A stretch of DNA of 57,102 nt. Source: an uncultured virus (IMG/VR IMGVR_UViG_643886092_000009). Taxonomy: Duplodnaviria > Heunggongvirae > Uroviricota > Caudoviricetes. The DNA lies in IMG/VR virus record IMGVR_UViG_643886092_000009. One strand, given 5' to 3'. Positions 15,144 through 36,317 of this stretch are shown here, in pieces (positions within the stretch are counted from its first letter, which is position 1; every line of letters begins with the position of its first letter). The translations under genes were made by a program, and so were the position numbers. A model generated the notes under the pieces. That model made no database searches. It saw only the letters and a list, made by a program, of their open reading frames with translations, and was not told where the DNA came from.

Positions 15144-16424
15144 ATGTGTAAATCAAACGAGTGTAAAGTTATTAGTTGTAAAGGTAGAGTAGTAAATAAA
15201 GAATATTGTCGTAAACATTTAAAGGCATTACTAGACGGTACATTAGAGTGCAAAGTTTCAGATTGTAATAGAGAAATGTTATATGATGGATATTGTGGCA
15301 AACATCATATGCAATGGAGAAGGTATGATAGAGTCTTTACAGATTTAGAATTTAAAGAGATAAAACCAAATTTATTTTGTAAAGTAGACGGATGTTTAAG
15401 CAAACGCAACTCAGGAGGATATTGCGAAGAGCATGGGTATGTTAAATTAGATGAGAAATTTAAGGATAAATGTAAAGAAAAGGGATGTTCAAGTAAGTCT
15501 GTTGAAGGAGACTTATGTATTGAGCATTATATAGAAAAGAAAAAGTTAAACTTAAAAGATACAGTAACTCCTTATGATAAAGGAGAAGACCGTACAGGAA
15601 CAATGTGTAAAATTGTGTATTGTTGTAATGGACAGGAGATAGATGGTTACTGTGGAAAACATGCTATTCTTATTAGTCTAGGTAAACTTGAAGAGGAAAT
15701 GTCAAGACGAGGGACAGTGAAATGCAAAGTAGATGGTTGTGAATCGTGGGTTAAAAATGGAACTCTTTGTCCTATGCATAAAGCACATATGAAGAGATAT
15801 GGTAGAGTATTAACAAAAGAAGAACATAAGCAGAAAACACCTAAGGCATATTGTAGAGCAGAAGGTTGTTATGTAAGAGAACCTAAAGGTCGTTATTGTG
15901 AAGACCATCAAGATATTGGAATGAAAGAATTAAAGACTTCAAAAATAAAAGATAATCTTTGTCTTCATGAAAACTGTAAAAGAAAAGTATTTATTAATAA
16001 TATATGTACAACTCATTATATAAAAGACGAGGGTGAAATCAGCTTAAACGGAGTATCAACTCCTTATGATAAAGGAGAAGACCGTACAGGAACAATGTGT
16101 AAAATTGTGTATTGTTGTAATGGACAGGAGATAGATGGTTACTGTACAAAGCACGCGATTTTAATCCATGCAAATAAGTTAGAGTCTGAAATGAAACGAA
16201 TTGGAAGAGTAAAGTGTAAAATAGACGATTGTATACAATGGTCTAAAACGGACGGTTTATGTGCTAGACACAAAAACCAAGAAAGGAGATATGGTAAAGC
16301 TCTAACAGACAAAGAGTTTAAAGAAAAGAAACCTCATTTATTTTGTAATATAGATGGTTGTTTAAACCGTAAGGCAGAAGGTAAATATTGTGAAGAACAT
16401 CATCAACTAACAAAAATAAACTGA
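15144..16424 (+). CDS. Tandem CCCH putative zinc-finger protein (11 units)
   Basis: 11 copies of C-x4-C-x9-C-x2-H; RBS aggagg. Confidence 0.85.
   Translation: MCKSNECKVISCKGRVVNKEYCRKHLKALLDGTLECKVSDCNREMLYDGYCGKHHMQWRRYDRVFTDLEFKEIKPNLFCKVDGCLSKRNSGGYCEEHGYVKLDEKFKDKCKEKGCSSKSVEGDLCIEHYIEKKKLNLKDTVTPYDKGEDRTGTMCKIVYCCNGQEIDGYCGKHAILISLGKLEEEMSRRGTVKCKVDGCESWVKNGTLCPMHKAHMKRYGRVLTKEEHKQKTPKAYCRAEGCYVREPKGRYCEDHQDIGMKELKTSKIKDNLCLHENCKRKVFINNICTTHYIKDEGEISLNGVSTPYDKGEDRTGTMCKIVYCCNGQEIDGYCTKHAILIHANKLESEMKRIGRVKCKIDDCIQWSKTDGLCARHKNQERRYGKALTDKEFKEKKPHLFCNIDGCLNRKAEGKYCEEHHQLTKIN
15566..16145 (+). repeat. 88-bp perfect direct repeat (15566-15653 and 16058-16145)
   Basis: aactccttatgataaaggag...gatggttactgt is identical in both copies, 492 bp apart and in frame. 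Confidence 0.95.
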
Positions 16425-16468
16425 AAGCTATACAAAAGAAACTAAAAAGTAAACAATAACGGATAAAT

Positions 16469-16505
16469 AAAACAGGTTCTTACAAAAGACCTGTTTTTAT
16501 TTTTT
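16469..16505 (+). terminator. Intrinsic terminator (possibly bidirectional)
   Basis: aaaacaggt...acctgtttt then tattttt. Confidence 0.7.
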
Positions 16506-16528
16506 GTTCAAAGGTGGGGTATTTAGAC

Positions 16529-17032
16529 ATGAAACTATGTAAAGAAGAAACTTGTTCAAATAGGCATTATAGTAAAGGTTATTGTAGAAAACATTATATG
16601 AAATTTGAATATGGAAAGAAACCTTGTAAAATAAAAGGGTGTCCAAACAAGGTACATGCAAAAGGGTATTGTGACTCACATTATAAAGAACTTATCTATT
16701 TGAAAGGTAAAACTTGCAAGATAGAAGGATGCAACAAACCGTATCATGGGAAAGGTTTTTGTACCAATCATTACTATGAGTATAGAGTACATAGTAGTAA
16801 AGAAAAAGAAGTTAGACTTTGTAGTATAGAAGGTTGTACAGATAAGCATTACGGGAAGGGGTATTGCTCTAAACACTATCGAATGAATCGAAAGACTGGT
16901 AGTCCAATTAGTCCTTCTGAGAAAATACGAAACCAAGGTTGTTCTATAGAAGGGTGTGATAATGAACATAGAGCAAAAGGGTATTGTTCGAAACATTATC
17001 AGTATTACCACAAGAAGGGTTTAATTCAGTAG
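16529..17032 (+). CDS. Tandem CCCH zinc-finger protein (5 units)
   Basis: ATG at 16529 after aaggtgggg; five CxxxGC...KG(Y/F)CxxHY-type units. Confidence 0.85.
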   Translation: MKLCKEETCSNRHYSKGYCRKHYMKFEYGKKPCKIKGCPNKVHAKGYCDSHYKELIYLKGKTCKIEGCNKPYHGKGFCTNHYYEYRVHSSKEKEVRLCSIEGCTDKHYGKGYCSKHYRMNRKTGSPISPSEKIRNQGCSIEGCDNEHRAKGYCSKHYQYYHKKGLIQ

Positions 17033-17057
17033 ACTTATACGTTATGTATCTATACAC

Positions 17058-17086
17058 TTGACAAATTGAGAAATCTATGTTATAAT
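17058..17086 (+). promoter_or_regulatory. Sigma-A consensus promoter
   Basis: TTGACA-17-TATAAT. Confidence 0.9.
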
Positions 17087-17116
17087 AGTAAGTATAAAGA
17101 GTGGAGGACAAAGGGT

Positions 17117-17461
17117 ATGTGTCAGTCAAAACAATGTAAAGTAGAGGGATGCGAAAACAAGAAGAAAGCAAGAGGGTTATGCAACAAACATTATACAAGG
17201 TTTAGCAGATATGGTACACATAAACTATTACATGAAGTAGTGAGTGTGAAAGGGAAACCATGTGAAGTAAACGGGTGTAAAGAAACGCAAAAAGCAAAAG
17301 GGTTATGTAACTATCATTATTTTGAAGAATGGAAGAGAAAGAAAACAAAGGTCTGTTCTATAAACAAATGTTCTTCAAAGGAGTATACAAAAGGGTTATG
17401 TCAAAATCATTATATGCGTCAAAGAGACGAAAAGATAGAGAAACTAGAGAAACTGGGGTAA
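17117..17461 (+). CDS. Tandem CCCH zinc-finger protein (3 units)
   Basis: ATG at 17117 after ggagg; the tracked start at 17066 lies inside the promoter. Confidence 0.85.
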   Translation: MCQSKQCKVEGCENKKKARGLCNKHYTRFSRYGTHKLLHEVVSVKGKPCEVNGCKETQKAKGLCNYHYFEEWKRKKTKVCSINKCSSKEYTKGLCQNHYMRQRDEKIEKLEKLG

Positions 17462-17467
17462 GATGGT

Positions 17468-17608
17468 ATGAAAGAAAGAGAATTAGACTTCTATTCATTA
17501 ATGGAAGGAAAGAAGCAACTAGCACAAGAAATGGCTAACTTGATGAAGAGTGGCTACACAGAGTCACAAGTTATTGATTTAGTTTTAAAAATGTATGGAA
17601 ATCAATAA
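17468..17608 (+). CDS. Small helical protein (46 aa), not in the ORF track
   Basis: MKERELDFYSLMEGKKQLAQEMANLMKSGYTESQVIDLVLKMYGNQ; ggggt upstream; fills the gap in the operon. Confidence 0.65.
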   Translation: MKERELDFYSLMEGKKQLAQEMANLMKSGYTESQVIDLVLKMYGNQ

Positions 17609-17650
17609 ACAAGAGTAGAAACTATTTAGAATCGAAGTGGGGTAGTAATT

Positions 17651-18556
17651 ATGTGTACAGAAAACAAACAATGTAAAGCAAAGAATTGTCAGAAACGAGA
17701 ATTAAGAGAAGGATTCTGTAAAGTACATTTAATTCAATTTCTAAATGGAGAAGAGATTGAAATCGGTACAAACGAATGTATTATTGAAGACTGTAATTTA
17801 GAAGCCGTAACAGCAGTTGGTTACTGTCATACACATAAGAACCAAGCATACAGATGGGGTAGAGCCTATTCAGAAAAAGAGTTAAAAGAGGTCAAACCAC
17901 ATCTATTCTGTAAGGAATCAGGTTGTATCAACAGAAGAAAAACTGGTGGTTATTGTGAAGAACATAAACATCTAGTAAAAGACGATAAGTTAAAGTGTAG
18001 TGAACCAAAATGTAAGCACAAAGTCTTTAAAGATGGAATTTGTAGACAACATTATATTGAGAAACTAGATTTTTCACAATTAAAAGGTGTTGTTACACCT
18101 TTTGACAAAGAAACAGTTCGAAACGATGATTGGTGTCGTATTAAAAATTGTAAAAATGATGCGAAATATGAAGGGTACTGTTTTTTACATGGTAGACTCA
18201 TTTTAGACGGAGAGTTGGATGAGTACATGACAGACAATGGTTCAAAACTATGTACGGTATCAGACTGTGACGAGATTGTAAAAGGAAAAGGTTTATGCCA
18301 TAGACATTATCAACAATTTAATAAATATGGTAAAGCTTTTACGAACGAAGAACACAAGAAGATTGTACCTCAGTTTTATTGTATTGAAGACGGTTGTTCA
18401 GAAAAGAGAGAACTCGTTCAGTATTGCGGGGTACATGCAGTAAAACATAAAAATGATACCGAAGCACAATGTTTCGAACCAAGATGTAGAGATAACATAT
18501 TTAAAGACGGTAAATGTGCGATACATTACTATGATAGTCAAAGACGAGGTGAATAA
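17651..18556 (+). CDS. Tandem CCCH zinc-finger protein (8 units), paralog of 15144
   Basis: Eight units; shares the KPHLFC and VTP(F/Y)DK linkers with 15144. Confidence 0.85.
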
Positions 18557-18557
18557 T

Positions 18558-19160
18558 ATGTTACAAAATAAATTAGGTATAACAGACCAAATTGAGTTAG
18601 CTAGGGAAGAGGAACGTATAAGTAAGTTAAAAGCAAAAACTTTATATGATAGTGGGAAAATAGATAAAATAGAAATTGGGACATTTAAAGGTTTATCAGA
18701 CATTCATAGATGTCTGTTTGAAGATATTTATGATTTTGCAGGAGAACAAAGAAAAGTAAATATTTCAAAAGGTAACTTTAGATTTGCCCCTGTTATGTAT
18801 TTAAGTGTAGCCTTAGACTATATAGATAAAATGCCTCAAACAACATATGATGAAATAATTGCAAAGTATGTAGAAATGAACGTTGCTCATCCTTTTAGAG
18901 AAGGTAATGGCAGAAGTATGCGTATTTGGTTAGATTTAATTTTAAAGAAAGAAATACAAAAGGTAGTAGATTGGAACTTAGTAGAGAAAGAAGCCTATTT
19001 GTCAGCAATGGAACGTAGTCCAGTCAACGATTTAGAAATTAGATATCTATTAAAACAAGCATTAACAGATGATATTCAGAATAGAGACGTATTCATGAAA
19101 GGTATTGACGTAAGTTATTACTATGAAGGGTATACTGAATACAATACAGACGAGTTATAA
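18558..19160 (+). CDS. fic: Class III Fic-domain protein adenylyltransferase
   Basis: [12 protein letters not shown] active-site motif; C-terminal inhibitory SYYYEG (S/T-xxx-E-G); ATG at 18558 after gaggtg. Confidence 0.92.
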
Positions 19161-19250
19161 GAAAGATACCTCTAGAGAAAATTAGGGGTATTCTCTATGT
19201 AAATATACAACAAGAATATAAAGTATAAACGTATTAGGAAGATAAAGTAG

Positions 19251-20105
19251 GTGTTAAAATTGTCATCCAAACAATGTAAAGTAGATAACTGTACAAATAA
19301 GGTATTAGCAAGAGAAATGTGTTCAAAACATTATACGCAATGGAGAAAACATGGTGAATTACGACCTGACTTAGAAAAGCAGAGACATGATATTTGTACA
19401 GAAGAAGGTTGTAACAGAAAGCACTACTGTAAGGGGTATTGTAACAAACATTATAAGCAATATAAATCACATGGTAGAACTACACCTGAACTAGAAAGAA
19501 TCGGTAAAACTAAGATTTGCAAAGTTGATGATTGTAATAAGAAAACGTTAAGTAAAGGGTATTGTAGTAAACACTATTCTCAATTATATAAATATAATAC
19601 ATTAAGACCTGATATCGAAAGAGGTAAGATTAGATTATGTACGGTAGACGGGTGTGAGAATAAGTATAAAGCAAAAGGATATTGTACAGGTCATTATGTT
19701 CAGTTCAAGAAGTATGGTTACATTGTAAAACCAGTTAAGCAAGAAACAAGACTATGTAAAGCAGAAGGTTGTAATGAACCAATACGTGCGAGAGGTTGTT
19801 GTGATAAACACTATCAACAACTAAGAATACACGGTAGTTTGAAGTCTAAGTCAAAGAAACTATGTAGTGTAGAAGGTTGTACAAGCCCACATCAATCAAA
19901 AGGGTTCTGTAACAAACATTATAAACAAATAACTCGACATAATGAAATAATAGACTATAGATTACATAGAGGTTGTATGGTAGAAGGTTGTAACAATAAA
20001 CACAAGGCGAGGGGACTTTGTAAGAAGCATTATCAAAGAGTAATGAACACATTAAACAAGGTACAAAATACATATAACATCAAAGTAGGGGTAGTAAACG
20101 AATGA
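19251..20105 (+). CDS. Tandem CCCH zinc-finger protein (7 units)
   Basis: Seven units, most followed by a Q...(H/Y)G helix. Confidence 0.85.
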   Translation: MLKLSSKQCKVDNCTNKVLAREMCSKHYTQWRKHGELRPDLEKQRHDICTEEGCNRKHYCKGYCNKHYKQYKSHGRTTPELERIGKTKICKVDDCNKKTLSKGYCSKHYSQLYKYNTLRPDIERGKIRLCTVDGCENKYKAKGYCTGHYVQFKKYGYIVKPVKQETRLCKAEGCNEPIRARGCCDKHYQQLRIHGSLKSKSKKLCSVEGCTSPHQSKGFCNKHYKQITRHNEIIDYRLHRGCMVEGCNNKHKARGLCKKHYQRVMNTLNKVQNTYNIKVGVVNE

Positions 20106-20341
20106 TTTGTAAGGAAATAGATTGTCATAGCAAAGTAAGAGCAAAGGGGTATTGTGCTAAACACTATACACAAATACAAAGGCATGGTAGAGTTACACCT
20201 GAGAAAGAAAAGCTTCAAAACGGTGGAATTTGTAAGATAGAAGGTTGTAATCAGAAACTAAGAAGTAGAGGTCTTTGTTCAAGTCATTACTACCAACACA
20301 TGGGATTTTATCAGATGAAAAAGAATAAAGAGAACTCGTAG
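20102..20341 (+). CDS. CCCH zinc-finger protein (2 units)
   Basis: ATGA overlap with the upstream stop; two units. Confidence 0.8.
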   Translation: MICKEIDCHSKVRAKGYCAKHYTQIQRHGRVTPEKEKLQNGGICKIEGCNQKLRSRGLCSSHYYQHMGFYQMKKNKENS

Positions 20342-20364
20342 GTCTACAAGTAGTAGACCTTTTT
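20340..20364 (+). terminator. Intrinsic terminator
   Basis: aggtctac-aagta-gtagacct-tttt. Confidence 0.8.
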
Positions 20365-20380
20365 GTTTACCTTTATATAT

Positions 20381-20409
20381 TTGACAAATAGTAAAACTTA
20401 TGTTATAAT
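20381..20409 (+). promoter_or_regulatory. Sigma-A consensus promoter
   Basis: TTGACA-17-TATAAT. Confidence 0.9.
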
Positions 20410-20438
20410 ATAGTTAGATAATGTAAAGGGTGAGAGAT

Positions 20439-21167
20439 ATGGCAAAGAAGCATAAAGTTTGTACAGTACCAAACTGTAATTTGGTTTACTACGCAAGGGG
20501 TTGTTGTAGGAAACATTATAATCAGATTAAAGAATATGGTAGACTTACACCTGAGTTAGAAATAGTAGGAATAACGAGAAGATGTTCCGAGAGAAACTGT
20601 AATAATTTACATTATGCAATTGGTTTATGCGAGAAACATTATCATCAGAAACGCATATATGGTCAAGTTGTTAGTGAGGTAGAGGACAATGAACCTTGTG
20701 AAGTAAAAGACTGTCCTTTTCCAAGGAGAGCAAAGGGGTATTGTAGAAAGCACTACTCACAAATGTATAGAAACGGTGAAATCAATACCGAAGTAGAAAG
20801 AGATAGAGTTAAATTATGTATAGTAGATGGTTGTACAGGAAAACATAAATCACATGGTTATTGTTCAAAACACAATCATCAAATAAATAAGTATGGTAGA
20901 ATTATAACAGACGAGGAAAAGAAGCAGTATAAGACTTGTCAGTTAGAAGGTTGTAGTAATACTCATGTAGTTGAGGGGTATTGTGGTACGCATTATAATG
21001 AAAAGAGACTAACTGGTAAAGTTACAATTCAAACAGATAAGGTGAGAAGAGAAGGTTGTAAGGTAGAGGGTTGTAAGAATAAGTATTATGCAAGAGGATT
21101 TTGTCGGAAACATAATACAGAAGATAAGAACAAAGGGGTAGTGGTATATGGAACAAATGATAAATAA
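20439..21167 (+). CDS. Tandem CCCH zinc-finger protein (6 units)
   Basis: Six units; start is ATG 20439 or GTG 20430. Confidence 0.85.
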   Translation: MAKKHKVCTVPNCNLVYYARGCCRKHYNQIKEYGRLTPELEIVGITRRCSERNCNNLHYAIGLCEKHYHQKRIYGQVVSEVEDNEPCEVKDCPFPRRAKGYCRKHYSQMYRNGEINTEVERDRVKLCIVDGCTGKHKSHGYCSKHNHQINKYGRIITDEEKKQYKTCQLEGCSNTHVVEGYCGTHYNEKRLTGKVTIQTDKVRREGCKVEGCKNKYYARGFCRKHNTEDKNKGVVVYGTNDK

Positions 21168-21753
21168 GGTAGAACATTTTATTTATGAGATTAATCAGTT
21201 ACATAAAGAAGTTTCACAAGATTACTTTGAAACTAATAAGGAAGAAAGATATAACTTATCAAAAACGATTACACATGTACCTGTAGACTATATTTTAGAT
21301 TACAGATTAAATTTACATGAATGTATAAACGATTATCTGATGAGGGGTTTAAGTCCTTTATTCTTTGTCTACCGTGTTAAAACACATGAGAGTATTATGG
21401 ATAAACTAGAAAGATATGCAAACCGAGAAAATAAGTACCCTGTAAATGGTTGGTTAAATGATATATTTGGTTGTAGATTAATAGTAGATACAGAAACAAT
21501 GGAGTTAATTGAAAATACACTAGATAAGTGGAAAGAACAATTTAATCTGAAAAACTGGTATAAGAAAGACAAAGATGGATATAAAGCGATTCATGTTTAT
21601 TTTAAGAATCAAAACAATGTATATTTTCCTTGGGAACTTCAAATATGGGATGAGAAGGATAAGAAACAAAACATACAAGCACATAGAAGTCAAAAGAGAA
21701 AGTTTATATTAAATAGAAAAACAATGATGGCACAATGGATTAGAGACTATTAA
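21148..21753 (+). CDS. RelA/SpoT-family small alarmone synthetase-like protein
   Basis: YRVKTHESIMDK, LNDIFGCRLI, GYKAIH and WELQI match the RelA_SpoT synthetase motifs; no hydrolase domain. Confidence 0.8.
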   Translation: MEQMINKVEHFIYEINQLHKEVSQDYFETNKEERYNLSKTITHVPVDYILDYRLNLHECINDYLMRGLSPLFFVYRVKTHESIMDKLERYANRENKYPVNGWLNDIFGCRLIVDTETMELIENTLDKWKEQFNLKNWYKKDKDGYKAIHVYFKNQNNVYFPWELQIWDEKDKKQNIQAHRSQKRKFILNRKTMMAQWIRDY

Positions 21754-21767
21754 GAATAGATAAAGAG

Positions 21768-21794
21768 AAGGTCTACTTATTTGTAGACCTTTTT
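21768..21794 (+). terminator. Intrinsic terminator
   Basis: aaggtctac-ttattt-gtagacctt-ttt; same stem as the terminator at 20340. Confidence 0.8.
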
Positions 21795-21812
21795 AATTAT
21801 ATTCTATCTAAC

Positions 21813-21841
21813 TTGACAAAAACTTAAACTTATGGTATAAT
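21813..21841 (+). promoter_or_regulatory. Sigma-A consensus promoter
   Basis: TTGACA-17-TATAAT. Confidence 0.9.
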
Positions 21842-22024
21842 AGTACTATATAAGAAATACAAATGAAGATATAAATAAAGAGACTGGCGTGTAGAAGTAT
21901 CCTGTATAGAGTAGGAAACTGTCCTTAAAAGCAGTCTGAAAAGGTTAAGGTAAAAGAAGTCACCAACAAGATAAGCATATGAAACGAAAAGATAAAAGTA
22001 TCTGATAAGAAAGAAGGGTTAAGT

Positions 22025-22720
22025 ATGAATCAAGTATCAGACCAGTTAGAAGTGGCAATTGTACAAGGTTTAGAGAAACATGTTCGTTCATTTATGAATA
22101 AAGGGGTAGTGGCTTTTACGCCTAGTACATTAGATGCGACTCTTTTACGTATGAAAGGTGAAGTTGAGCGTTTATTTCAGGATAAGTACGCTGTACTAGA
22201 CTTAGTTGATGAAGCAATTGGTTTAAGTCAAAGAAACCGATATAATCAATACAACATGAGTCCATTAGAAATGGCAAAGTTCCATTTTATTAAAGAAGAA
22301 CTAAAGTTTTCAGTAGCTTGGACAAGACAAGATATCCTAAACAGTATAGAAGAGTATCTGAATAAAGATAAAGAGTTGCCTAGAACTAAAGTAAACGTAT
22401 TATCTCTATTAGCAAATGAAGATAATTTTGGTTCAAACGAAGAAATGGTGAAGTTTATTGATGGTCATGAACTGGACATCTTAAAAGACTTTACAAGACA
22501 TATTTACCTTACAATGAATAAGGAAACTGGTGTCCGTGATTTACATTTTTACCATTATGTACCGGAAAACTACTTAAAGTTAGAAAATATCACATTACGA
22601 TTAAAATATGTATTTCTTAACTTAGTAGATAGAAATAAAGAACTAGATTGGAATGAAATTGAGTCGTTATTAAATACTTCAAACTTAGAATTGGTACGTA
22701 AAATTAAAGGGTTAGCATAG
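22025..22720 (+). CDS. Hypothetical protein with family B domain
   Basis: LLANEDNFGS...HIYLTMNKETG...KLENIT, homologous to the C-termini of 13075 and 14253. Confidence 0.8.
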   Translation: MNQVSDQLEVAIVQGLEKHVRSFMNKGVVAFTPSTLDATLLRMKGEVERLFQDKYAVLDLVDEAIGLSQRNRYNQYNMSPLEMAKFHFIKEELKFSVAWTRQDILNSIEEYLNKDKELPRTKVNVLSLLANEDNFGSNEEMVKFIDGHELDILKDFTRHIYLTMNKETGVRDLHFYHYVPENYLKLENITLRLKYVFLNLVDRNKELDWNEIESLLNTSNLELVRKIKGLA

Positions 22721-22723
22721 TAG

Positions 22724-24067
22724 GTGACAAATTTGTGTACAGAACAGTGTAAAACAGAAGGTTGTCAAGAAAAAGTAATAGCAGACGGATATTGTTATAT
22801 ACATTTTATGTCTGTAAGTAGTAAAACAAAAGATAAGAGTCAAAAGGCAAAAGAAACAATTATTGAAAACTATGCTATAACTTGTATGGAACAGGGTTGT
22901 GAGCAAATAAAGACCTACAAAGATAGATGTGATAAACATACTACTTTACACTATTTACAAGAAAAGGTTCAAATTTGTAAAATAAATGGATGTCTAAACG
23001 AAGTACACCAAGATGAGTTATGTAAGTATCATAGCAGACAGAAAGAAGTTTTAGGGTTTACAATCGAGACTGTACCTACCGTTAGACTTTGTAAGGAAGT
23101 AGGTTGTCTTCATGATGGGGTATACAGACAATATTGTAAAAAGCATTACATTGAGCATAAAAGAGAAGAAGATGTAGGGAAAGACTTATTCTGTAAAGAA
23201 GAACAATGTAGTGAAATAGCAGAAATAAAGGGGTATTGTTTAAATCACTATAAATCAGAAGGTAAACAAGTAAAAGGTAAGGATAAAACTCCAAAAGTAG
23301 TCGTAACGTTAGAAATGTCGAATAGGTGTGGGATAAAAGATTGTACAAAAGTTTTATTTGATGAAGATTTTTGTGAAAAACATGCTAACTTAATAAATTC
23401 GCAAGTGTCTGTAGATGAATCTTTCAACAATACAGGTTTTGACAAGAAATCTATACAGACTTGCATCGTAGATGGTTGTGTTCATTTGGAACATAAATTT
23501 GGGTTATGCGAATATCATTATAATGACATAAGTGAATTAGGAGACTTTAAATCAGACAAGGAAGTATTTGAAGACCGAAGATGTGCGGTAGAAGATTGTC
23601 GTTCAAAACGTACTAAGGTAATAAAAGACTCCTGTTTCTGTAAGTCACATTATGAAGAGTTCGTAAATAGAGAAAAGATAGCAAAGAAAATCAAGAAGAA
23701 AACTGAGAAACTATGTAATGTATTTGAGTGTAATGAGCCTAGAGATACAAGACTGTATTGTTCGTATCATGCGGAGCATATCAAAATGGGCTATGACTTT
23801 GAAATGAAAGACTGGTGTAGTCAAACAGGTTGTAAAGAAGAAGCAAACATGATGATAGGTAAGAAATACTACTGTAAGAAGCATGGAACTTGTAAGACAA
23901 GATATTGTAGAAATCCAGTTCATCAAAACGGACTATGTAAAGAGCATGTATTACAAAAGCAAGAAGAAAAACAGTGTAAAACCATGAATTGCGGTGAAAA
24001 AGCGTATAGAAAAGGATTATGTATCAATCATTATACGATAGCAAAGAACTTAGAAAGAGGGGTATAA
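22724..24067 (+). CDS. Tandem CCCH zinc-finger protein (12 units)
   Basis: Twelve units, two with 13-aa loops; the start may be TTG 22733. Confidence 0.85.
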   Translation: MTNLCTEQCKTEGCQEKVIADGYCYIHFMSVSSKTKDKSQKAKETIIENYAITCMEQGCEQIKTYKDRCDKHTTLHYLQEKVQICKINGCLNEVHQDELCKYHSRQKEVLGFTIETVPTVRLCKEVGCLHDGVYRQYCKKHYIEHKREEDVGKDLFCKEEQCSEIAEIKGYCLNHYKSEGKQVKGKDKTPKVVVTLEMSNRCGIKDCTKVLFDEDFCEKHANLINSQVSVDESFNNTGFDKKSIQTCIVDGCVHLEHKFGLCEYHYNDISELGDFKSDKEVFEDRRCAVEDCRSKRTKVIKDSCFCKSHYEEFVNREKIAKKIKKKTEKLCNVFECNEPRDTRLYCSYHAEHIKMGYDFEMKDWCSQTGCKEEANMMIGKKYYCKKHGTCKTRYCRNPVHQNGLCKEHVLQKQEEKQCKTMNCGEKAYRKGLCINHYTIAKNLERGV

Positions 24068-24068
24068 T

Positions 24069-24419
24069 TTGAGTACTTGTAAAGTAGAACATTGTGGTAG
24101 AAACACGAGAGCAAAAGGTTACTGTCACAAACACTATCAACAGTATTTAAGAACGGGAACAACATGGTTAGGTTATAGTGAGTTTCCTACTAAACAGTGT
24201 GAAGTACCAGACTGTGATGGTAGGCACTTCGCTAAGGGGTATTGTAATCGTCATTATCAACAATTTAAAGTACATGGAGAAGTTAAAACTGATTTGGAAG
24301 TACAACAAGAAAGAATTTGTTCCGTAGACGGTTGTTGCGGAAAGGTACTTGCAAAGAAAATGTGTGGTAAACATTACTATCAAGTAAGACGTAAAGGAAA
24401 AGTTGTACAATTAGCATAG
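24069..24419 (+). CDS. CCCH zinc-finger protein (3 units)
   Basis: TTG start after agggg; three units. Confidence 0.85.
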   Translation: MSTCKVEHCGRNTRAKGYCHKHYQQYLRTGTTWLGYSEFPTKQCEVPDCDGRHFAKGYCNRHYQQFKVHGEVKTDLEVQQERICSVDGCCGKVLAKKMCGKHYYQVRRKGKVVQLA

Positions 24420-24446
24420 GAAACAATAAGGTAAGGAGTCTTTTAG

Positions 24447-24707
24447 ATGTCAAAAGGTCAATGTGAAGTAGCAGGATGTAGTATTCCTGTACACTCAAAA
24501 GGGTATTGTAATAAACACTATCTTCAAATATGGAAACATAAGAAGTTAACACCTGAGTTAGAACGAATGAAGGTAACTGATTGTATTATACCGAATTGTG
24601 ATGGTAAGGTGCGTTCGAAGGGGTATTGTAGTAAACATTATTATCACTTTGTTTTAAAAGAAAAAGAAAAGAAAAAGAAGTTAAAGTCTACAGGAACAGA
24701 TAAGTAG
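24447..24707 (+). CDS. CCCH zinc-finger protein (2 units)
   Basis: RBS aaggag; two units. Confidence 0.85.
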   Translation: MSKGQCEVAGCSIPVHSKGYCNKHYLQIWKHKKLTPELERMKVTDCIIPNCDGKVRSKGYCSKHYYHFVLKEKEKKKKLKSTGTDK

Positions 24708-24731
24708 TTCCATTAAACTATATAATAAGAG

Positions 24732-25157
24732 GTGGATAAGGTGACGATTTGCAAGGAAGAAGGTTGCAATTCGAAACAACATGCAAAAGGGTTATGTAAC
24801 ACACATTATCAAAAGAGTAGACGAAATTCTTTACATACAAGTCGTGGCATATGTAGTGTAGACACTTGTAATCTACCGCACTATGCTAAGGGGTATTGTA
24901 ATAAACATTATCAAAGCAGAAGAATGGCTAAGATAGTAGGAGACAAGCCACCGAAACCAAGAAAAGTTTGTAAAGTAGAAGGTTGCCAATTAGACCATAG
25001 AGTAAAGGGTTATTGTCGAAAGCACTACTATCAAGTTAAGAAACACGGTAGAGTATTAGATAAGGTACTAAAAGTAGACTACTGTATAATAGAGGGTTGT
25101 CACCGTGTAAGAGAAGCAAAGGGATATTGTCCGAAACATTATCAAAGAGTACATTAA
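24732..25157 (+). CDS. CCCH zinc-finger protein (4 units)
   Basis: Four units; start is GTG 24732 or 24741. Confidence 0.85.
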   Translation: MDKVTICKEEGCNSKQHAKGLCNTHYQKSRRNSLHTSRGICSVDTCNLPHYAKGYCNKHYQSRRMAKIVGDKPPKPRKVCKVEGCQLDHRVKGYCRKHYYQVKKHGRVLDKVLKVDYCIIEGCHRVREAKGYCPKHYQRVH

Positions 25158-25246
25158 AAGACTAAGAGTTTACTATTGTAATAGATTTAAGTATCAAAAC
25201 TATTACAAATAAATTGGTAAACTCTTTAAATTTGTCTTAAACATTA

Positions 25247-25275
25247 TTGACATATACCTAAATTTATGGTATAAT
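25247..25275 (+). promoter_or_regulatory. Sigma-A consensus promoter
   Basis: TTGACA-17-TATAAT. Confidence 0.9.
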
Positions 25276-25522
25276 AAGTATGTGTTAAGAAAAGGTAGTA
25301 AATACATATGCCTATTAAATGTTATAAGAATACATATGACTAACTAACCATACAGTGTGCTAGGAACGTAAATAATAGGTTTGTGCAATTATGGAACGTT
25401 TGTCTGTATAAACATAGATTCATAGTTTAATAGGGTATGAGACAAAAGAGTAAACAAAATAAACTAATTAAGGGAGGGTTAAGATACTGAAAGAGTCGAT
25501 GGACTACGGTATCGAAAACAAC

Positions 25523-30107: not shown

Positions 30108-30137
30108 AGCTACAGTTCTATCTGTAGCTTTTCTCCT
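30108..30137 (+). terminator. Intrinsic terminator
   Basis: agctacag-ttctat-ctgtagct followed by a T-run. Confidence 0.7.
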
Positions 30138-30162
30138 ATTAATCTTGTATGGGGTGTAAAAG

Positions 30163-30768
30163 ATGGATAAATTAACAGAAGACTTGTTAAGAGAGTTGTA
30201 CATAGAGAAAGGTATGTCAGACCGAGAGATAGGAGACTTATACGGAGTTACAAGAGCCAATATATCTTATCATCGGAAGAAATGGGGTATTGAAGGAAAA
30301 CCTTCTTTATCAAAGAAAGCTATTCAAGACGTACAAAATAAATTGGATTCTCTAGGGTTTGTAGTAGAAAACATGAAGAAAAAGAATACACATCATATAT
30401 TTGATTTGTTAGTAGAAAATACAATAAGACTAGATATTCGGTCTACAGAAACATTACAAGAAGATACTTTTAGATTTAAGTTATTAGATAGTGATAATTC
30501 ATGTTTACTAGAATCAGATAATAGACTTCAATTGAAAAATGGTCGAACTAAGAAGATTTTAAGAAACACATGTGATTTTGTAATACTTGTAGGCTACTTA
30601 AAAGGAGTAGCAAATTTTTGGGTAATTCCTTCACGAAACTTAAAAGATGATTTAAATGGTATCTCAATTAGACCTTATTCAGATTCCAGTAAGTATTTAG
30701 ATTACAAAGATTCATGGGGTAGTATTCGTCAAACCATTAAGTTGCAAAGAGTGAATAGAGTAGGTTAA
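30163..30768 (+). CDS. HTH + PD-(D/E)XK-like nuclease-fold protein (1 HTH)
   Basis: LRELYIEKGMSDREIG..YGV HTH; LGF.V.N...FDLLV...LDIRS...CDFVILVG...WVIPS. Confidence 0.7.
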   Translation: MDKLTEDLLRELYIEKGMSDREIGDLYGVTRANISYHRKKWGIEGKPSLSKKAIQDVQNKLDSLGFVVENMKKKNTHHIFDLLVENTIRLDIRSTETLQEDTFRFKLLDSDNSCLLESDNRLQLKNGRTKKILRNTCDFVILVGYLKGVANFWVIPSRNLKDDLNGISIRPYSDSSKYLDYKDSWGSIRQTIKLQRVNRVG

Positions 30769-30976: not shown

Positions 30977-31558
30977 GTGGCAAACATGGTAGCAGTTACA
31001 GAAAGCCAATTAAGAGATTTATATGAAGTACAAGGTAAGACTGATAAACAAATTGCAGGAGAGTATGGTGTAGATAGAACCCGTATCTCTCAATTACGTA
31101 AACAGTGGGGAATTACTACAAGACTTACTGTATTCGATAAAGGTGTAAAAGACGTAACAGATAAATTGGAGTCTTTAGGTTTTAAAGTAAAGAACGTGAA
31201 GAAAGATGATAAAACAGCTAACTACGATTTACTGTTAAATGACTTAATAAAGATAGAAGTAAGAACATCATCGGCTTTAGACAGAGGTAGACAGCATTTC
31301 AGATTACTGGAACAAGCTTCTACTGGGGTAGTCGAATCAGATATTCGTATCAAACTAAAGAATGGTCATTTCAGAAAGTTATTTAGACGAACATGTGATT
31401 ACATTATCTTTGTGGGGTATGAAGAAGGAAACATTAATTATTGGGTGATGCGTTCAAGTACGGTTACAGATACGATTCAAAGCCTTGGACTTAATATTTC
31501 ACCAATGGTAACGAGTAAGTTCGATGTATGTAGGGATGCATGGCATATCATCATATAA
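30977..31558 (+). CDS. HTH + PD-(D/E)XK-like protein (1 HTH)
   Basis: YDLLLNDLIKIEVRTS; paralog of 30163; the start may be ATG 30986. Confidence 0.7.
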   Translation: MANMVAVTESQLRDLYEVQGKTDKQIAGEYGVDRTRISQLRKQWGITTRLTVFDKGVKDVTDKLESLGFKVKNVKKDDKTANYDLLLNDLIKIEVRTSSALDRGRQHFRLLEQASTGVVESDIRIKLKNGHFRKLFRRTCDYIIFVGYEEGNINYWVMRSSTVTDTIQSLGLNISPMVTSKFDVCRDAWHIII

Positions 31559-31593
31559 TAAAATAGAATATAAGTAGAGAAGAGGTGATAAAT

Positions 31594-33891
31594 ATGTCAG
31601 AAAGACTATGTAGTGTAGAAGGTTGTGTTGGAAAGCATCAAGCAAGGGGTTTATGTAGTAAACATTATACTGAATACAGAAGGTCATTACAGCCAAAGAA
31701 ACCTAAATTTACAATACCAAAAGAAGAGTTAGTAAAGTTATATGTAGAAGATGGTTTGAATGATAAACAGATAGCAGAACTGAAAGGAACATACCCTTTA
31801 AAGGTTAGTAAGTTGAGAGAAAAGTACGGTATTGCAAAACGAACTTTAAAAGATGTAATACCAAAAGAAGAGTTATATGAACTCTATGTAATGAATGGGT
31901 TAACAGATATACAAATAGCAAAACTGAAAAATGTAGGAGATACTACAATATTTCGTTTAAGGAACGAGTATGGTATTGAGTCGAGTCATAGAAGCTATTT
32001 AACACAAGAGCAATTGTATCAGCTATATGTCGTAGATGGATTATATGACGAAGAAATAGCAAAATTAACAGGGTATCATAAAGACTCTATTAGCAAGTGG
32101 AGAAGAGACTACGGAATTAAAGCACACTCTAGAAAAGGTACAAAGAAAAAGGGTACAAAACGTAGAAGTATAATAGTAAAAGAACAACTATACCGACTGT
32201 ATACAATAGATGGTTTAACAGATAAGCAAATTGCAGAACAAATAGGAATAACAAGTAGTCATGTATCTTACCTAAGAAAGAGTCGGGGTATCGAAACAAG
32301 ACCTACAATTGTAGCGAAATCTATACCTTATGTAGAAAGCGTACTAACAAAACTAGGTTTCCAAGTAACAAACATAAGGGAAATAAAGTATAACGCTACT
32401 CACGATTTATTATTAAACGATAAAATCAGAATAGATGTTAGAACTACAGAGTCTCTACAAAGAAACAATACAGAACTTAAATTTAAGTTATTGGATTCAG
32501 ATGATTCAAATTTGAAAACATCAGATATCCGATTTAGAGTTAGTAGTGGTCGCACAAAACGAGATTTACATCTTACATGTGAATATATCATATGTGTGGG
32601 GTATTTGAATGAAAAACCTCATTGTTGGGTTATACCTTCTAAGGATTTAAGAAAAGACTTACAAGGTATTTCAATCAGTCCTTACGCTGAAAACAGTAAA
32701 TATGAGATTTACGCAGAAGCATGGAACTTGATAAAACCAGTTAAGAAAGAAATACTAACAAAGAAAGAGTTAGAAAGGCTATATGTAAAAGAAAATCTGT
32801 CAGATAGTAGAATAGCGAAACGAGTTGGAGTAAGTACAGCAACAATAGGAAATCTTAGAAGAGCATATGGTATTGAAGCAAAACGAGATATTCAAGAAAT
32901 GTCTAAGCAAGAGTTAGAGAAACTATATGTAGAAGAGGGACTAACAGATAAAGAAATAGCAGAACGTAAGGGTACGTATCCTACTAAGATAAGAAGATTG
33001 AGAGAAAAGTATGGTATCGAAACAAAGTCTAGAGCTACAATTAGTAAAGAGGAATTAACTAAACTGTACGTAGATGAAGGAATGTCAGATAAAGAAATAG
33101 CAAAACAAAAAGATGTATCACTCGAAACTGTGTATCGTTTAAGAAGAGAATACGGTATCAAATCAAGACCTTCTGTACCAATACTAACAAAAGAACAATT
33201 GTACCAGTTATACGTTGTACAAAGATTATCGGATAGTAAGATAGGAGACATATATAAAGTATCGAAGAAAACAATTGCAAAGTTAAGAAAAGAGTATAAT
33301 ATCGAAACAAACCCTACGATTTCTCTTGTAACTAAAGAACAATTACATCATCTGTACGTAGAAAAGGAAATGAGCGATGGTCAGATAGGAAAATTGTTTG
33401 GGGTAACTAGAGAATCAATTTTAAAATACAGAAACAAGTATGGTATCGCTACAAGACTTACAATAGCAAACAAAGCAATCCAAGACGTAGGAAATCATTT
33501 AGTTCAATTGGGTTTTCACGTAGTCAATATAAGAGGGGTAGACTATGCTTCTTTTTATGATTTACTGTTGAATAATAGACTACGTATAGATATAAAAGCA
33601 ACTGAATACGTAACAAAAGATGGATTCTTTAAGTTTAAATTACTGGATAAGGATGAATCAAACTATATAGGTAGTAATTCAAGACTCATTGTAGATAGCG
33701 GTAGAACCAAAAGAAACCTACACGATACATGTGATTTCGTTATTTGTGTGGGGTATTACAACAACAAACCTTACACATGGGTTATACCTTCAAAAGATTT
33801 AAGAAAAGACTTACAAGGTATAACAATAAACCCTAATCTAGAAAACAGTAGATACTTGAGATATTCGGAAGCTTGGCATTTATTAAGATAA
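31594..33891 (+). CDS. Fusion: CCCH finger + 4 HTH + nuclease + 5 HTH + nuclease
   Basis: N-terminal CSVEGC...CSKH; nine ~48-aa KEEL..LY...L.D..IA......LR..YGI units; two nuclease-like domains (HDLLL..IDVRT, YDLLL..IDIKA). Confidence 0.8.
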   Translation: MSERLCSVEGCVGKHQARGLCSKHYTEYRRSLQPKKPKFTIPKEELVKLYVEDGLNDKQIAELKGTYPLKVSKLREKYGIAKRTLKDVIPKEELYELYVMNGLTDIQIAKLKNVGDTTIFRLRNEYGIESSHRSYLTQEQLYQLYVVDGLYDEEIAKLTGYHKDSISKWRRDYGIKAHSRKGTKKKGTKRRSIIVKEQLYRLYTIDGLTDKQIAEQIGITSSHVSYLRKSRGIETRPTIVAKSIPYVESVLTKLGFQVTNIREIKYNATHDLLLNDKIRIDVRTTESLQRNNTELKFKLLDSDDSNLKTSDIRFRVSSGRTKRDLHLTCEYIICVGYLNEKPHCWVIPSKDLRKDLQGISISPYAENSKYEIYAEAWNLIKPVKKEILTKKELERLYVKENLSDSRIAKRVGVSTATIGNLRRAYGIEAKRDIQEMSKQELEKLYVEEGLTDKEIAERKGTYPTKIRRLREKYGIETKSRATISKEELTKLYVDEGMSDKEIAKQKDVSLETVYRLRREYGIKSRPSVPILTKEQLYQLYVVQRLSDSKIGDIYKVSKKTIAKLRKEYNIETNPTISLVTKEQLHHLYVEKEMSDGQIGKLFGVTRESILKYRNKYGIATRLTIANKAIQDVGNHLVQLGFHVVNIRGVDYASFYDLLLNNRLRIDIKATEYVTKDGFFKFKLLDKDESNYIGSNSRLIVDSGRTKRNLHDTCDFVICVGYYNNKPYTWVIPSKDLRKDLQGITINPNLENSRYLRYSEAWHLLR

Positions 33892-33922
33892 ACTAGAAAG
33901 TAGAAAGGAGGTAGTTTATCTT

Positions 33923-35083
33923 ATGGCATTTAAACTATCAAAAGAAGAAATGTATAAGTTATATGTAGAAGATGGCTTATCAGATAGACAGATAGCAGAA
34001 TTAAAGGGTGTGAACACGTCTACAATCAGACGATTGCGAGTAAAGTATGAAATCGAAACAAGGGGTAGACATAATGTAGACCCTACACAAGTATTAAGTA
34101 AAACAGAATTAGAAAGATTGTATATAGAAGAATGTTTATCAGATAAAACAATTGGTAAACAAGTTGGTTTGAGTCATTCAACTGTTCATAGGTTGAGAGT
34201 AAAGTACGGTATCGAAAGAAGACCTGTAAAAAGAGCCTTTACAGAAGAAGAGTTAAAACAGCTATACATTAAAGAAGGTAAGACGGACGAACAGATTGCA
34301 AAATTAAGGGGTATTACGGCAGGAGCAGTAACGCATTTGAGGAAGGTATATGGGATTGAAGCAATAGAAAGGGCTGTAGTACCAAAAGAAATATTGATAG
34401 ACTTATATGTAAAACAGAAAATGACAGATAAAGAAATAGCTGAACAATATAATTGTGCAGAAAAGACGGTCTGTAGTTTAAGGAAAAGATTTGGTATACA
34501 AGCAAACAGAAAAAGATGTTCCTTATCGAAAGAGCAAGTATATAACCTATATGTAGAAAAAGGTTTAAGTGATAATCAAATCGCAAACTTATATGGTACG
34601 TATTCCGCTACAATTTCTAGTTTGAGAGAGCGTTACGGTATTCAAACGAAAGAAGTCATAACAGACCATTCATTACCGTATGTATACAATATTTTAGTTC
34701 AATTGGGCTTCCAAGTTGAAAACATGAGACAACATACGCATATGTTATTTTATGATTTCTTATTAAACGGTAGAATTCGTATAGATGTAAGAACTTCAAC
34801 CACTTTCTATAATAACAGTTTAAACTTCAAGTTATTAGATAAGGATAATTCAGGATACACGGAATCAGATGTAAGACTGAGAGTAGATAGTGGAAGAACA
34901 AAGAGAAATATAAGAAATACATGTGATTTCGTCATTTGTGTGGGGTATATAAAAGGAAAACCGCATTGTTGGGTAATACCTTCTAGAGATTTAAAGGAAG
35001 ATTTACAGGGTATTACAATTAGACCGTATTCAAATAGAAGTAAATATAATTTCTATGCAGAAGCATGGAGTTTAATTAAGTAA
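33923..35083 (+). CDS. 5 tandem HTH + PD-(D/E)XK-like nuclease
   Basis: RBS aaggagg; five HTH units, then YDFLLNGRIRIDVRTS. Confidence 0.8.
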   Translation: MAFKLSKEEMYKLYVEDGLSDRQIAELKGVNTSTIRRLRVKYEIETRGRHNVDPTQVLSKTELERLYIEECLSDKTIGKQVGLSHSTVHRLRVKYGIERRPVKRAFTEEELKQLYIKEGKTDEQIAKLRGITAGAVTHLRKVYGIEAIERAVVPKEILIDLYVKQKMTDKEIAEQYNCAEKTVCSLRKRFGIQANRKRCSLSKEQVYNLYVEKGLSDNQIANLYGTYSATISSLRERYGIQTKEVITDHSLPYVYNILVQLGFQVENMRQHTHMLFYDFLLNGRIRIDVRTSTTFYNNSLNFKLLDKDNSGYTESDVRLRVDSGRTKRNIRNTCDFVICVGYIKGKPHCWVIPSRDLKEDLQGITIRPYSNRSKYNFYAEAWSLIK

Positions 35084-35113
35084 AACATTATCTTAAACGA
35101 GGTGGTAATCGTT

Positions 35114-35467
35114 ATGTCAGATAAGATGAGTAAGGAAGACTTAATAAAAAGGATTCAACAAAGTCCAAGCGGTAAAGTTTGGAATGAAGACGAAATCAAA
35201 CAATTATTAATGACAAACCCAAAAGCAGTATATAGTGGGATTCTTGCAATATATAAGTTACAGACGGAAGAAGAGAAGAAGAGTCGAGAGACTCAAGTAC
35301 AAAACGGTATGGGTTTTAATGCAAACGATAGTGTAATCATGTCTAGCTTTGCAGAACAGATTCTACAAGGCAAGATATTATCACAAAGACAATTCGCAGT
35401 AGCATCTAAACGTATTTTAAAGTATGTAAATCAGTTAACTGATATAGCAAACGAAGATTACTATTAA
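35114..35467 (+). CDS. Hypothetical phage-type protein
   Basis: ATG at 35114 after gaggtgg. Confidence 0.75.
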   Translation: MSDKMSKEDLIKRIQQSPSGKVWNEDEIKQLLMTNPKAVYSGILAIYKLQTEEEKKSRETQVQNGMGFNANDSVIMSSFAEQILQGKILSQRQFAVASKRILKYVNQLTDIANEDYY

Positions 35468-35485
35468 TAAAATAAGAGGTAAGAT

Positions 35486-35812
35486 ATGAAACTATGTAGT
35501 GTAGATGGATGTAAAGTGAAACATAGGGCAAAGGGCTATTGTCCAAGACATTATAGACAAGCTAGAGCAGGAAAAGAAATTACATTGGAGTATATCAATC
35601 AAACTGGTAGGGTTTGTAGTCTAGATGGGCGTAACCGAAAGCATAGAGCAAAAGGGCTGTGCAAGTTACATTATGATAATGCAAGGTATACAATAAGACC
35701 CACTAAACCAATAAGGTTATGTACAATAGCAGGTTGCACAAAGAAACACCAAGCAAAAGGATTATGTTTGAATCATTACAATCAAGAACGGTATAGGAGA
35801 AAGAAGGTTTAG
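35486..35812 (+). CDS. CCCH zinc-finger protein (3 units, one degenerate)
   Basis: The second unit has C to R (CSLDGR). Confidence 0.85.
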   Translation: MKLCSVDGCKVKHRAKGYCPRHYRQARAGKEITLEYINQTGRVCSLDGRNRKHRAKGLCKLHYDNARYTIRPTKPIRLCTIAGCTKKHQAKGLCLNHYNQERYRRKKV

Positions 35813-35813
35813 A

Positions 35814-36317
35814 ATGCTAAATACTAAACTATGTAAGCTATTTGGGTGTAAACAAAAGAGCTACGCAAAGGGGTATTGCAGTTCTCACTACGACCAGTTC
35901 CGTAACGGAAGAAAAGTAGGAGAAGTAAAAAAGTATAAAACACATTGTTCTATAGAAAACTGTAGCTTAAAACATCATGCAAAAGGATATTGTAGAAAAC
36001 ATTATGTTCAAATAAACAAACATGGTAAAACCTTACCTGAGAGGGTAAAAGTTTGTGTTGTAGATGGTTGTGAAGAGAAACATCATGCAAGAGGTTTTTG
36101 TAGAAAGCACTATAACCAAATAGGCAAGCTAGATAAACTATTACCTGAGAAAGATACAACATGTAGTGTAGAAGGGTGTGATGGAGAGAGTCGGACAAGG
36201 AATATGTGTTTAAAACATTACACTAGATGGTATCGTAATGAAAAGAAGAAACCCAGTAACGAGAGTTACTACAGTAAACAATATTATAGTAATAAGGAGG
36301 AAGAAACATGTTTGTAA
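35814..36317 (+). CDS. CCCH zinc-finger protein (4 units)
   Basis: Four units. Confidence 0.85.
   Translation: MLNTKLCKLFGCKQKSYAKGYCSSHYDQFRNGRKVGEVKKYKTHCSIENCSLKHHAKGYCRKHYVQINKHGKTLPERVKVCVVDGCEEKHHARGFCRKHYNQIGKLDKLLPEKDTTCSVEGCDGESRTRNMCLKHYTRWYRNEKKKPSNESYYSKQYYSNKEEETCL

Follow-up and report, generated by a model that had tools for sequence, protein, structure and literature searches.

What does a bacterial conjugative plasmid do with 14 genes encoding 71 Cys/His fingers, when long tandem zinc-finger arrays are usually deemed a speciality of eukaryotes? The question is raised by a stretch of 57,102 bases (hereafter the window) catalogued as the IMG/VR virus record IMGVR_UViG_643886092_000009, in which the finger genes span ~21 kb. 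Its bases 15144-25157 are 100% identical to a ~350-kb plasmid found in ten Bacillus thuringiensis records, among them pAM65-52-2-350K and pBTHD789-1, and a Megablast of the same bases against phages returned zero matches. The ~350-kb records are those of pXO16, described as a large conjugative plasmid of B. thuringiensis serovar israelensis (PMC6199540), and on this identity the window is part of pXO16, a 350-kb conjugative plasmid whose record has 349,600 bases. Counterparts of pXO16 have also been reported from serovars yunnanensis and pondicheriensis. On balance, and with modest confidence, we predict from sequence comparisons and structural models that the finger arrays of pXO16 are nuclease-free, zinc-dependent, modular DNA binders.

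Tandem fingers in 14 genes of pXO16

The repeated unit is a C-x4-C-x9-C-x2-H motif, of which a six-frame scan of the window recovered 67 strict matches, all on the + strand and each within one of 14 open reading frames (ORFs, named here by their window position), with none outside these ORFs or in other frames. Shuffled versions of the 14 proteins (residues permuted inside every protein, 1000 rounds) contained the motif 0.06 times on average and at most twice. In order from ORF 15144 to ORF 35814, the strict matches number 11, 5, 3, 7, 7, 2, 6, 10, 3, 2, 4, 1, 2 and 4. Four variant units, namely one with a 10-residue loop at residue 43 of ORF 17651, two with longer loops at residues 287 and 365 of ORF 22724 and one at residue 44 of ORF 35486 in which Arg replaces the second Cys, raise these counts to 11, 5, 3, 8, 7, 2, 6, 12, 3, 2, 4, 1, 3 and 4, i.e., to 71 fingers (two extra regex matches overlapped true units and are excluded from this total). 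These are exactly the figures that an earlier note, made from the bare sequence, had given gene by gene. That note had also described near-invariant metal ligands set among variable loop and helix residues, and this too is borne out: the four ligands are invariant in all 67 aligned units, and in the canonical units entropy is highest at loop positions 6, 7, 9 and 10 and helix positions 16, 20 and 22-25, with the scaffold conserved (consensus C-[KS]-[VI]-[ED]-G-C-x2-K-x2-A-[KR]-G-[YL]-C-x-K-H-Y-x-Q).

The 14 genes, which together devote ~10 kb of coding sequence to the fingers and all lie on the + strand, fall into two classes. Three encode divergent arrays with more diverse units: 15144..16424 (426 amino acids (aa), 11 fingers), 17651..18556 (301 aa, 8 fingers, of which 7 are strict and one has the 10-residue loop) and 22724..24067 (447 aa, 12 fingers, 10 strict and 2 with longer loops). 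The other 11 are canonical, with a unit spacing of ~36-41 residues. Ten of these encode arrays alone, at 16529..17032 (167 aa, 5 fingers), 17117..17461 (114 aa, 3 fingers), 19251..20105 (284 aa, 7 fingers), 20102..20341 (79 aa, 2 fingers), 20439..21167 (242 aa, 6 fingers), 24069..24419 (116 aa, 3 fingers), 24447..24707 (86 aa, 2 fingers), 24732..25157 (141 aa, 4 fingers; the RefSeq start is at window 24741), 35486..35812 (108 aa, 3 fingers, the middle one with Arg for the second Cys) and 35814..36317 (167 aa, 4 fingers). The last, at 31594..33891 (frame from 31585), combines a single N-terminal finger with many HTH_23-type helix-turn-helix (HTH) repeats and with a ~135-aa domain that occurs twice. 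All 14 proteins are basic (isoelectric point (pI) 8.1-10.2, net charge +4 to +40), the canonical arrays reaching a net charge of +10 to +40.

The scale of this expansion is unusual. A profile of the unit, which was built from the 67 strict units of pXO16 and is thus less sensitive to distant relatives, gives 69 matches in the entire 349,600-base plasmid, all on the + strand between record positions 85457 and 106552 (window 15159-36254). Counted with the same profile, Bacillus phage 0305phi8-36 has 7 units, a Rossellomorea plasmid of 628 kb has 6 and a Cytobacillus plasmid has 4, and five genomes chosen for holding the motif have 1-5 units. Units occur in 10 of 401 evenly sampled genomes of an order containing a Bacillus genome (maximum 4) and in 48 of 401 genomes of an actinobacterial class (maximum 8), so that by this pXO16-built profile the 69 fingers of the plasmid compare with at most 8 in any of ~800 sampled genomes. 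Likewise, among 72,556 plasmid records, 27 match ORF 19251: ten are copies of pXO16, with 26-27 places each, and the other 17 have 1-5. The finger itself is already catalogued and nuclease-free arrays have been annotated before, as a functionally uncharacterised kind. What is peculiar to pXO16 is the scale of the expansion, its tight clustering, a four-finger super-repeat and the copy-number variation of that super-repeat. As a separate observation, a Cytobacillus plasmid (NZ_CP065512.1) has at 6001-6504 a four-finger array frame where its gene table is empty, directly behind a gene labelled 'replication protein'.

Family, fold and probable ligand of the finger

Two Pfam families cover the unit, each with a profile that begins immediately ahead of the first Cys and reaches the His. 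ORF 19251 scores 40.3 bits against Zf_WRKY19 (PF24906; cut-off 27) in 4 stretches, one of which aligns residues 88-108 with profile positions 2-22 of 24, the exact span of the ligand pattern, and the other 13 proteins are below that cut-off or unmatched (best 17.4 bits). ORF 20439 (frame from 20430) scores 30.8 bits against DUF5763 (PF19067; cut-off 26.3), with ten other arrays at 11-23 bits, so that 12 of the 14 proteins lie under both cut-offs. The finger thus belongs to a catalogued family, and neither family name states a function. No paper was found in literature searches with the names and accessions of Zf_WRKY19 and DUF5763, a scan of the 14 proteins against NCBIfam returned nothing, and a related-locus search with ORF 19251 gave 27 pattern matches, none of them confirmed. 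In RefSeq, ORF 31594 is a 'putative DNA-binding transcriptional regulator' and each of the remaining 13 array genes a 'hypothetical protein', and two reviews (PMC6199540 and PMC9673590) contain none of the terms zinc, cysteine and HNH.

The earlier statement that 13 of the proteins have no catalytic domain holds in Pfam, NCBIfam and PADLOC alike. HNH, HNH_3, HNH_5 and Endonuclease_7 are all absent from the 14 proteins at a Pfam E value of up to 1. Scans of the whole plasmid found one HNH domain, at record 63793-63930, outside the cluster and in a protein without the finger, and zero HNH_3 or Endonuclease_7. PHROGs nevertheless assigns pXO16 proteins to families labelled 'HNH endonuclease'. Four such families of phage and actinobacterial HNH or endonuclease VII proteins (5351, 1271, 3593 and 19978) do carry the same C-x4-C-x9-C-x2-H followed by Y at their N-termini, often at least twice in tandem; the pXO16 proteins differ in having no HNH, HNH_3 or Endonuclease_7 domain, and because no nuclease domain is present the label, judged by domain content, is wrong for them. 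Where PHROG matches run the full length (phrog_12058 at 1675 bits; phrog_5351), it may be the plasmid's own proteins that were matched, since the only homologue of ORF 31594 in phage records is one weak partial match.

Beyond pXO16 the finger is very widespread, and yet we found no structure of it and no experiment on it. Against 1.84 billion representatives, the unit profile matches 25,644 proteins (cluster representatives) at E <= 0.001; tightening the threshold to E <= 1e-30 leaves 299. The exact motif A-K-G-Y-C-x-K-H-Y is present at no fewer than 120 loci in many bacterial phyla and one archaeon, and literature searches, whose coverage excluded subscription papers, returned no experimental or functional paper on the Cys3His finger. 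We counted partner domains in the best 150 of the 25,644 array proteins, each of which has 3-25 matched stretches: 53 contain a homing-type nuclease (40 HNH-type, 8 Endonuclease_7, 4 LAGLIDADG and 1 GIY-YIG), one an HTH and one a Cas12f-like TNB domain, and a further relative outside this tally joins the finger to AP2 and HNH_3. The earlier note had cited a single similar finger N-terminal to phage HNH endonucleases. The position is right, and in numerous phages, plasmids and bacteria the finger forms the N-terminal, variable-copy module of homing-type nucleases. The number is not, as what is common in this family, be it in phages, in plasmids or across many bacterial phyla, is the tandem array rather than the single finger.

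As to the fold, AlphaFold modelled the three-finger protein of ORF 24069 from a 25-sequence alignment with a mean predicted local distance difference test (pLDDT) score of 78 and a predicted template modelling (pTM) score of 0.38. In each unit, short strands lead into a helix with C-x2-H at its start. Confidence is low in the linkers, and the array is predicted to be a string of independently folding, treble-clef-like beads on flexible linkers. With one finger as query, an exhaustive structural aligner placed A20 ZF7 at the top (Z 3.7, root-mean-square deviation (rmsd) 1.7 over 31 residues) and A20 ZnF4 at Z 3.1 (the A20 matches having rmsd 1.6-1.7 over 31 residues), with GATA/AreA next at Z 2.1-2.6. 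When the unit profile was run against the sequences of solved structures, matches were marginal, the best (E 0.26) being domain V of Sulfolobus topoisomerase III (PDB 6k8n), at whose Cys3His site zinc was seen by anomalous scattering (bioRxiv 10.1101/706986). Taken with this marginal likeness to a Cys3His zinc site of known structure, the invariant Cys3His ligands suggest one zinc per unit.

The strongest argument for DNA as the ligand lies in the fusions of the finger, which is joined, in differing numbers of copies, to homing nucleases of four unrelated classes, to HTH and to AP2; variable-copy fusion to nucleases is known behaviour of nuclease-associated DNA-binding modules (PMC5714182). 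The positive charge, the bead-on-a-string model and the union of finger and HTH in ORF 31594 agree with it. From sequence we infer zinc binding, DNA as the ligand, specificity of the individual fingers and a biological role as follows. The 14 genes would yield strings of small, independently folding Cys3-His fingers of treble-clef type, each array contacting an extended DNA site through a fixed scaffold whose variable loop and helix residues could set the preference. Host sigma-A RNA polymerase would transcribe the arrays from very strong promoters, with Fic and RelA/SpoT-like host-modifying enzymes, and the arrays, whether as regulators or by occluding sites, may serve the programme of the plasmid itself. 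The earlier proposal of a repertoire of modular readers stands insofar as the units are modular and numerous and the fusion to four nuclease classes fits nucleic-acid reading, but such a repertoire is not peculiar to pXO16, whose distinction in this respect is the size of the expansion alone.

Several observations pull the other way. The link with nucleases rests on a minority of relatives, 95 of the best 150 being without any further recognised domain, and the three divergent arrays are mildly basic (pI 8.1-8.8). A conserved TGEKP-like linker between fingers was considered and dropped: two linker patterns follow 5 and 7 of the 67 units (P[ED]x[ED] standing behind 7) and 24 and 20 of the 944 units in the best 150 relatives. 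Foldseek, run against the PDB, returned nothing at E <= 0.001; the A20 fingers, which the unit resembles most in structure, have ubiquitin and not DNA as their ligand, and a Z of at most 3.7 is too low to show kinship of the unit with either A20 or GATA fingers. The authors of the topoisomerase III structure give its zinc site a mainly stabilising role (bioRxiv 10.1101/706986).

Three of these points, namely the A20 likeness, the 95 relatives with neither a nuclease nor another DNA-related domain and the weakly basic divergent arrays, would suit arrays that bind protein or RNA, as scaffolds or decoys that hold proteins of the host or of rival elements. We judge this unlikely: the A20 matches are weak and reflect a general treble-clef shape common to DNA-binding GATA fingers, the partners that recur across the family are DNA nucleases, HTH and AP2, and the canonical arrays have the high net charge given above.

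Transcription units, neighbouring enzymes and array evolution

The predicted DNA-binding arrays sit among promoters of one pattern. The window contains 14 perfect extended -10 sigma-A promoters of the form TTGACA-N14-TGNTATAAT (1178, 3398, 9382, 15083, 17058, 20381, 21813, 25247, 27856, 36630, 41535, 51209, 52476 and 54356), all on the + strand, where none is expected, and even their spacers are similar (e.g., AAAT....AAACTTATGG). They would seem to represent a promoter type used across the plasmid, and they recall the early promoters of phages. Four of the 14 serve arrays, on the + strand: 15083..15111 precedes ORF 15144, 17058..17086 the unit from ORF 17117 to ORF 20102, 20381..20409 ORF 20439 with the RelA/SpoT-like gene, and 21813..21841 ORF 22025 with the four arrays at 22724-25157. 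The earlier observation of consensus sigma-A promoters ahead of several arrays is hence correct, but with their spread over the window they give no sign of the special role of the arrays, in host takeover, anti-defence or competition between elements, that had been read into them. Terminator-like hairpins lie at 15007, at 20340..20360 (+ strand; closing the unit begun at 17058) and at 21765..21794 (+ strand; behind the RelA/SpoT-like gene).

In two runs labelled RNA-seq from one study (X4 and X11), contigs cover nearly all of 14000-26000, with a contig depth in X4 of 36 to 586 (up to a 16-fold difference). The X11 contigs break at four predicted terminator/promoter gaps. Contigs end near the 20340 hairpin at 20335 (X11) and 20392 (X4), and near the 21765 hairpin at 21747 (X11). 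The contig pattern is compatible with transcription in the predicted units, a point tempered, to the detriment of the expression proposed above, by the fact that RNA libraries may include DNA and that contigs, not reads, were placed on the window.

Two of the arrays abut genes for enzymes. The Fic-domain gene (18558..19160, + strand; Pfam Fic E 5.5e-14) lies within the array operon and begins 1 nucleotide (nt) after array 17651 ends. Its 200-aa product has the motif HPFREGNGR and a C-terminal S-Y-Y-Y-E-G (S-x3-E-G), the putative mark of a self-inhibited Fic class. PDC-S04, a candidate defence family of PADLOC, matches this product over nearly its full length (E 1.4e-104). The end of array 20439 overlaps the start of a small RelA/SpoT-like gene (21157..21753, + strand; Pfam RelA_SpoT E 1.6e-7), whose product matches phrog_4012 over its full length (E 1.1e-63) and the candidate defence family PDC-S33 (E 2.1e-9). 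With 804 homologues at 55-81% identity in many phyla, the RelA/SpoT-like protein appears unusually conserved for a mobile gene. These tight junctions, and the defence-family matches of both enzymes, could mean that some arrays are antitoxin-like inhibitors or targeting subunits of the Fic and RelA/SpoT-like proteins. This we consider distinctly unlikely, as tight or overlapping junctions are usual here (e.g., 20102/20105, 24067/24069 and 35812/35814), no more than 2 of the 14 arrays adjoin such an enzyme, the Fic protein bears a putatively self-inhibitory motif of its own, and array 20439 has just two distant relatives in the database that gave the 804 RelA/SpoT-like homologues, so that a conserved pairing is improbable.

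Array length varies among copies of pXO16 that are otherwise at least 99.9% identical: the alleles of ORF 15144 have 262, 426 or 590 codons, i.e., 7, 11 or 15 fingers, in steps of 492 nt (the variant-length alleles are at 301-1089 of L129 and 1079-2851 of L130, two other pXO16 records). The units of this ORF are ordered as a 164-residue super-repeat of four different fingers, as are those of its paralogue ORF 17651. The repeats of ORF 15144 are 50-70% alike except for a nearly identical ~90-nt patch, present on the + strand at 15564..15653 and again 492 nt downstream at 16056..16145. Compared at offset 492, the two copies are 93% identical in the first 30-nt bin and perfectly so from ~15594. 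The length alleles are probably products of unequal recombination at this patch, or else an assembly artefact; an 88-nt contig of the RNA libraries, at roughly double depth, is in line with the repeated patch. The units themselves are old duplicates, with saturated synonymous sites: over 2080 pairs, the median proportion of synonymous differences (pS) is 0.64 and of nonsynonymous differences (pN) 0.49, a saturation that makes pairwise pN/pS between units uninformative. In ORF 15144, the two diverged halves of the super-repeat give a ratio of nonsynonymous to synonymous substitution rates (dN/dS) of ~0.43. The super-repeat is retained in a Bacillus cereus protein (P0023, 589 aa, 15 motif matches) that shares 40% identity with ORF 15144. 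This best homologue and a RelA/SpoT-like protein of 77% identity appear to come from the same 125,950-base contig, and the difference in identity, with orthology assumed, hints that the arrays change faster than neighbouring genes.

That the arrays are functionless, decaying homing endonucleases stripped of their nuclease domains, as the nuclease fusions among relatives, the one finger with a lost ligand and the differing array lengths might suggest, is very unlikely given that 67 of the 71 units are strict and one alone has lost a ligand despite saturated synonymous sites, that all 14 frames are open in DNA of ~32% G+C, that dN/dS has the value stated, that perfect promoters precede the genes and RNA libraries contain them, and that the B. 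cereus homologue retains the four-finger super-repeat.

Returning to DNA binding, we put forward as a tentative extension, well short of an even chance, that the 13 nuclease-free polydactyl proteins are DNA readers forming a diversified, recombining repertoire in which positions 6, 7, 9, 10, 16, 20 and 22-25 set base preference, and which, expressed at plasmid establishment from strong promoters of host type, might silence, mark or protect specific sites in the DNA of the host, of phages or of rival plasmids. Polydactyl zinc-finger families would then have a counterpart in prokaryotes and their phages. Should the fingers read DNA module by module, they would constitute a new natural modular DNA-recognition system and would explain how many homing nucleases find their sites, and the element of choice for its study would be pXO16, which offers many diverged arrays in one genetically tractable, non-pathogenic biopesticide strain. 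Should DNA reading prove false, the analysis still corrects the 'HNH endonuclease' label of PHROGs and gives a domain to 14 'hypothetical proteins' of a 'terra incognita' plasmid.

The surroundings of the arrays are rich in paralogues. By all-against-all BLASTP, 37 of the 72 + strand ORFs of at least 60 codons in the window fall into nine paralogue families, the largest being the finger/HTH group with 17 genes. Four ORFs (30163-30768, 30977-31558, 31585-33891 and 33923-35083) make up a second family with up to ~10 HTH_23-type repeats and the ~135-aa domain at the C-terminus, an architecture to which ORF 31594 adds its one N-terminal finger and a second copy of the domain. The ~135-aa domain has a D..(D/E)x(K/R) motif and weak leads to nucleases (PADLOC REase_II at E 3.8e-4; PDDEXK_16 and DpnI as Atlas neighbours) and is possibly a PD-(D/E)xK nuclease; its AlphaFold model is poor (pLDDT 59.6, 5-sequence alignment), and a sequence search of the PDB gave chance-level matches only. 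ORF 31594 also has a short, HTH-level match to mad1, and the 607-aa protein of 36706-38529 matches N6_Mtase (E 7e-4) and PADLOC mad2 (E 1.9e-5) weakly. The gene at 22025..22720 (+ strand), first in the operon of array 22724, is one of three paralogues (with 13075-14253 and 14253-15008, both directly upstream of the first array gene) to which Pfam, PHROGs and PADLOC gave no match. Two paralogous secreted N-acetylmuramoyl-L-alanine amidases (25499-27742 and 28072-30075) split the finger cluster in two; the wall-binding domains are SH3 in one and SH3 plus SLH in the other, and each gene follows its own perfect promoter.

Comparison with known systems

Among the closest known counterparts of the pXO16 arrays are two in Bacillus phage 0305phi8-36, itself an element of B. 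thuringiensis, whose gp9 and gp10 are adjacent paralogues with nuclease-free tandem arrays (7 profile matches). Their annotation, which dates from 2007, reads 'Cys-rich domain protein; may contain zinc fingers'. They differ from the arrays of pXO16 in being two genes rather than 14, in lying amid replication and repair genes and in their low identity (28% to ORF 35814). At the level of the fold, the predicted unit, with a knuckle, a hairpin and a helix that bears the last two ligands, superposes at low Z on the treble-clef fingers of A20 and GATA, but is Cys3His rather than Cys4 and has no significant sequence relation to them. Domain V of Sulfolobus solfataricus topoisomerase III shares the Cys3His ligands and an identical C-x9-C-x2-H-Y half, but has a C-x2-C knuckle, occurs as a single copy in a helical domain and matches only marginally.

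Eukaryotic proteins offer both relatives and analogues. The earlier note saw in the arrays a prokaryotic analogue of eukaryotic tandem fingers, which understates the connection: the finger belongs to the catalogued Zf_WRKY19/DUF5763 family, and the top matches of the unit profile include oomycete (Aphanomyces) proteins with 24 and 35 motif matches and one fungal protein. Because the domain is the same as in the WRKY19-type fingers of oomycetes, fungi and plants, the pXO16-type finger could, on the tentative extension given above, be the evolutionary source of those arrays, in the way that has been argued for AP2 domains and HNH nucleases. With eukaryotic C2H2 polydactyl fingers and the repeats of transcription activator-like effectors (TALEs), in contrast, the likeness is one of analogy only: all are tandem modules with a fixed scaffold, a variable surface and a length that changes by recombination (in pXO16, probably so). 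The pXO16 unit differs from both in fold and ligand pattern (C-x4-C-x9-C-x2-H, as against the Kruppel-type C-x2-4-C-x12-H-x3-5-H with its TGEKP-like linker, which the pXO16 proteins do not show), and it has no conserved linker.

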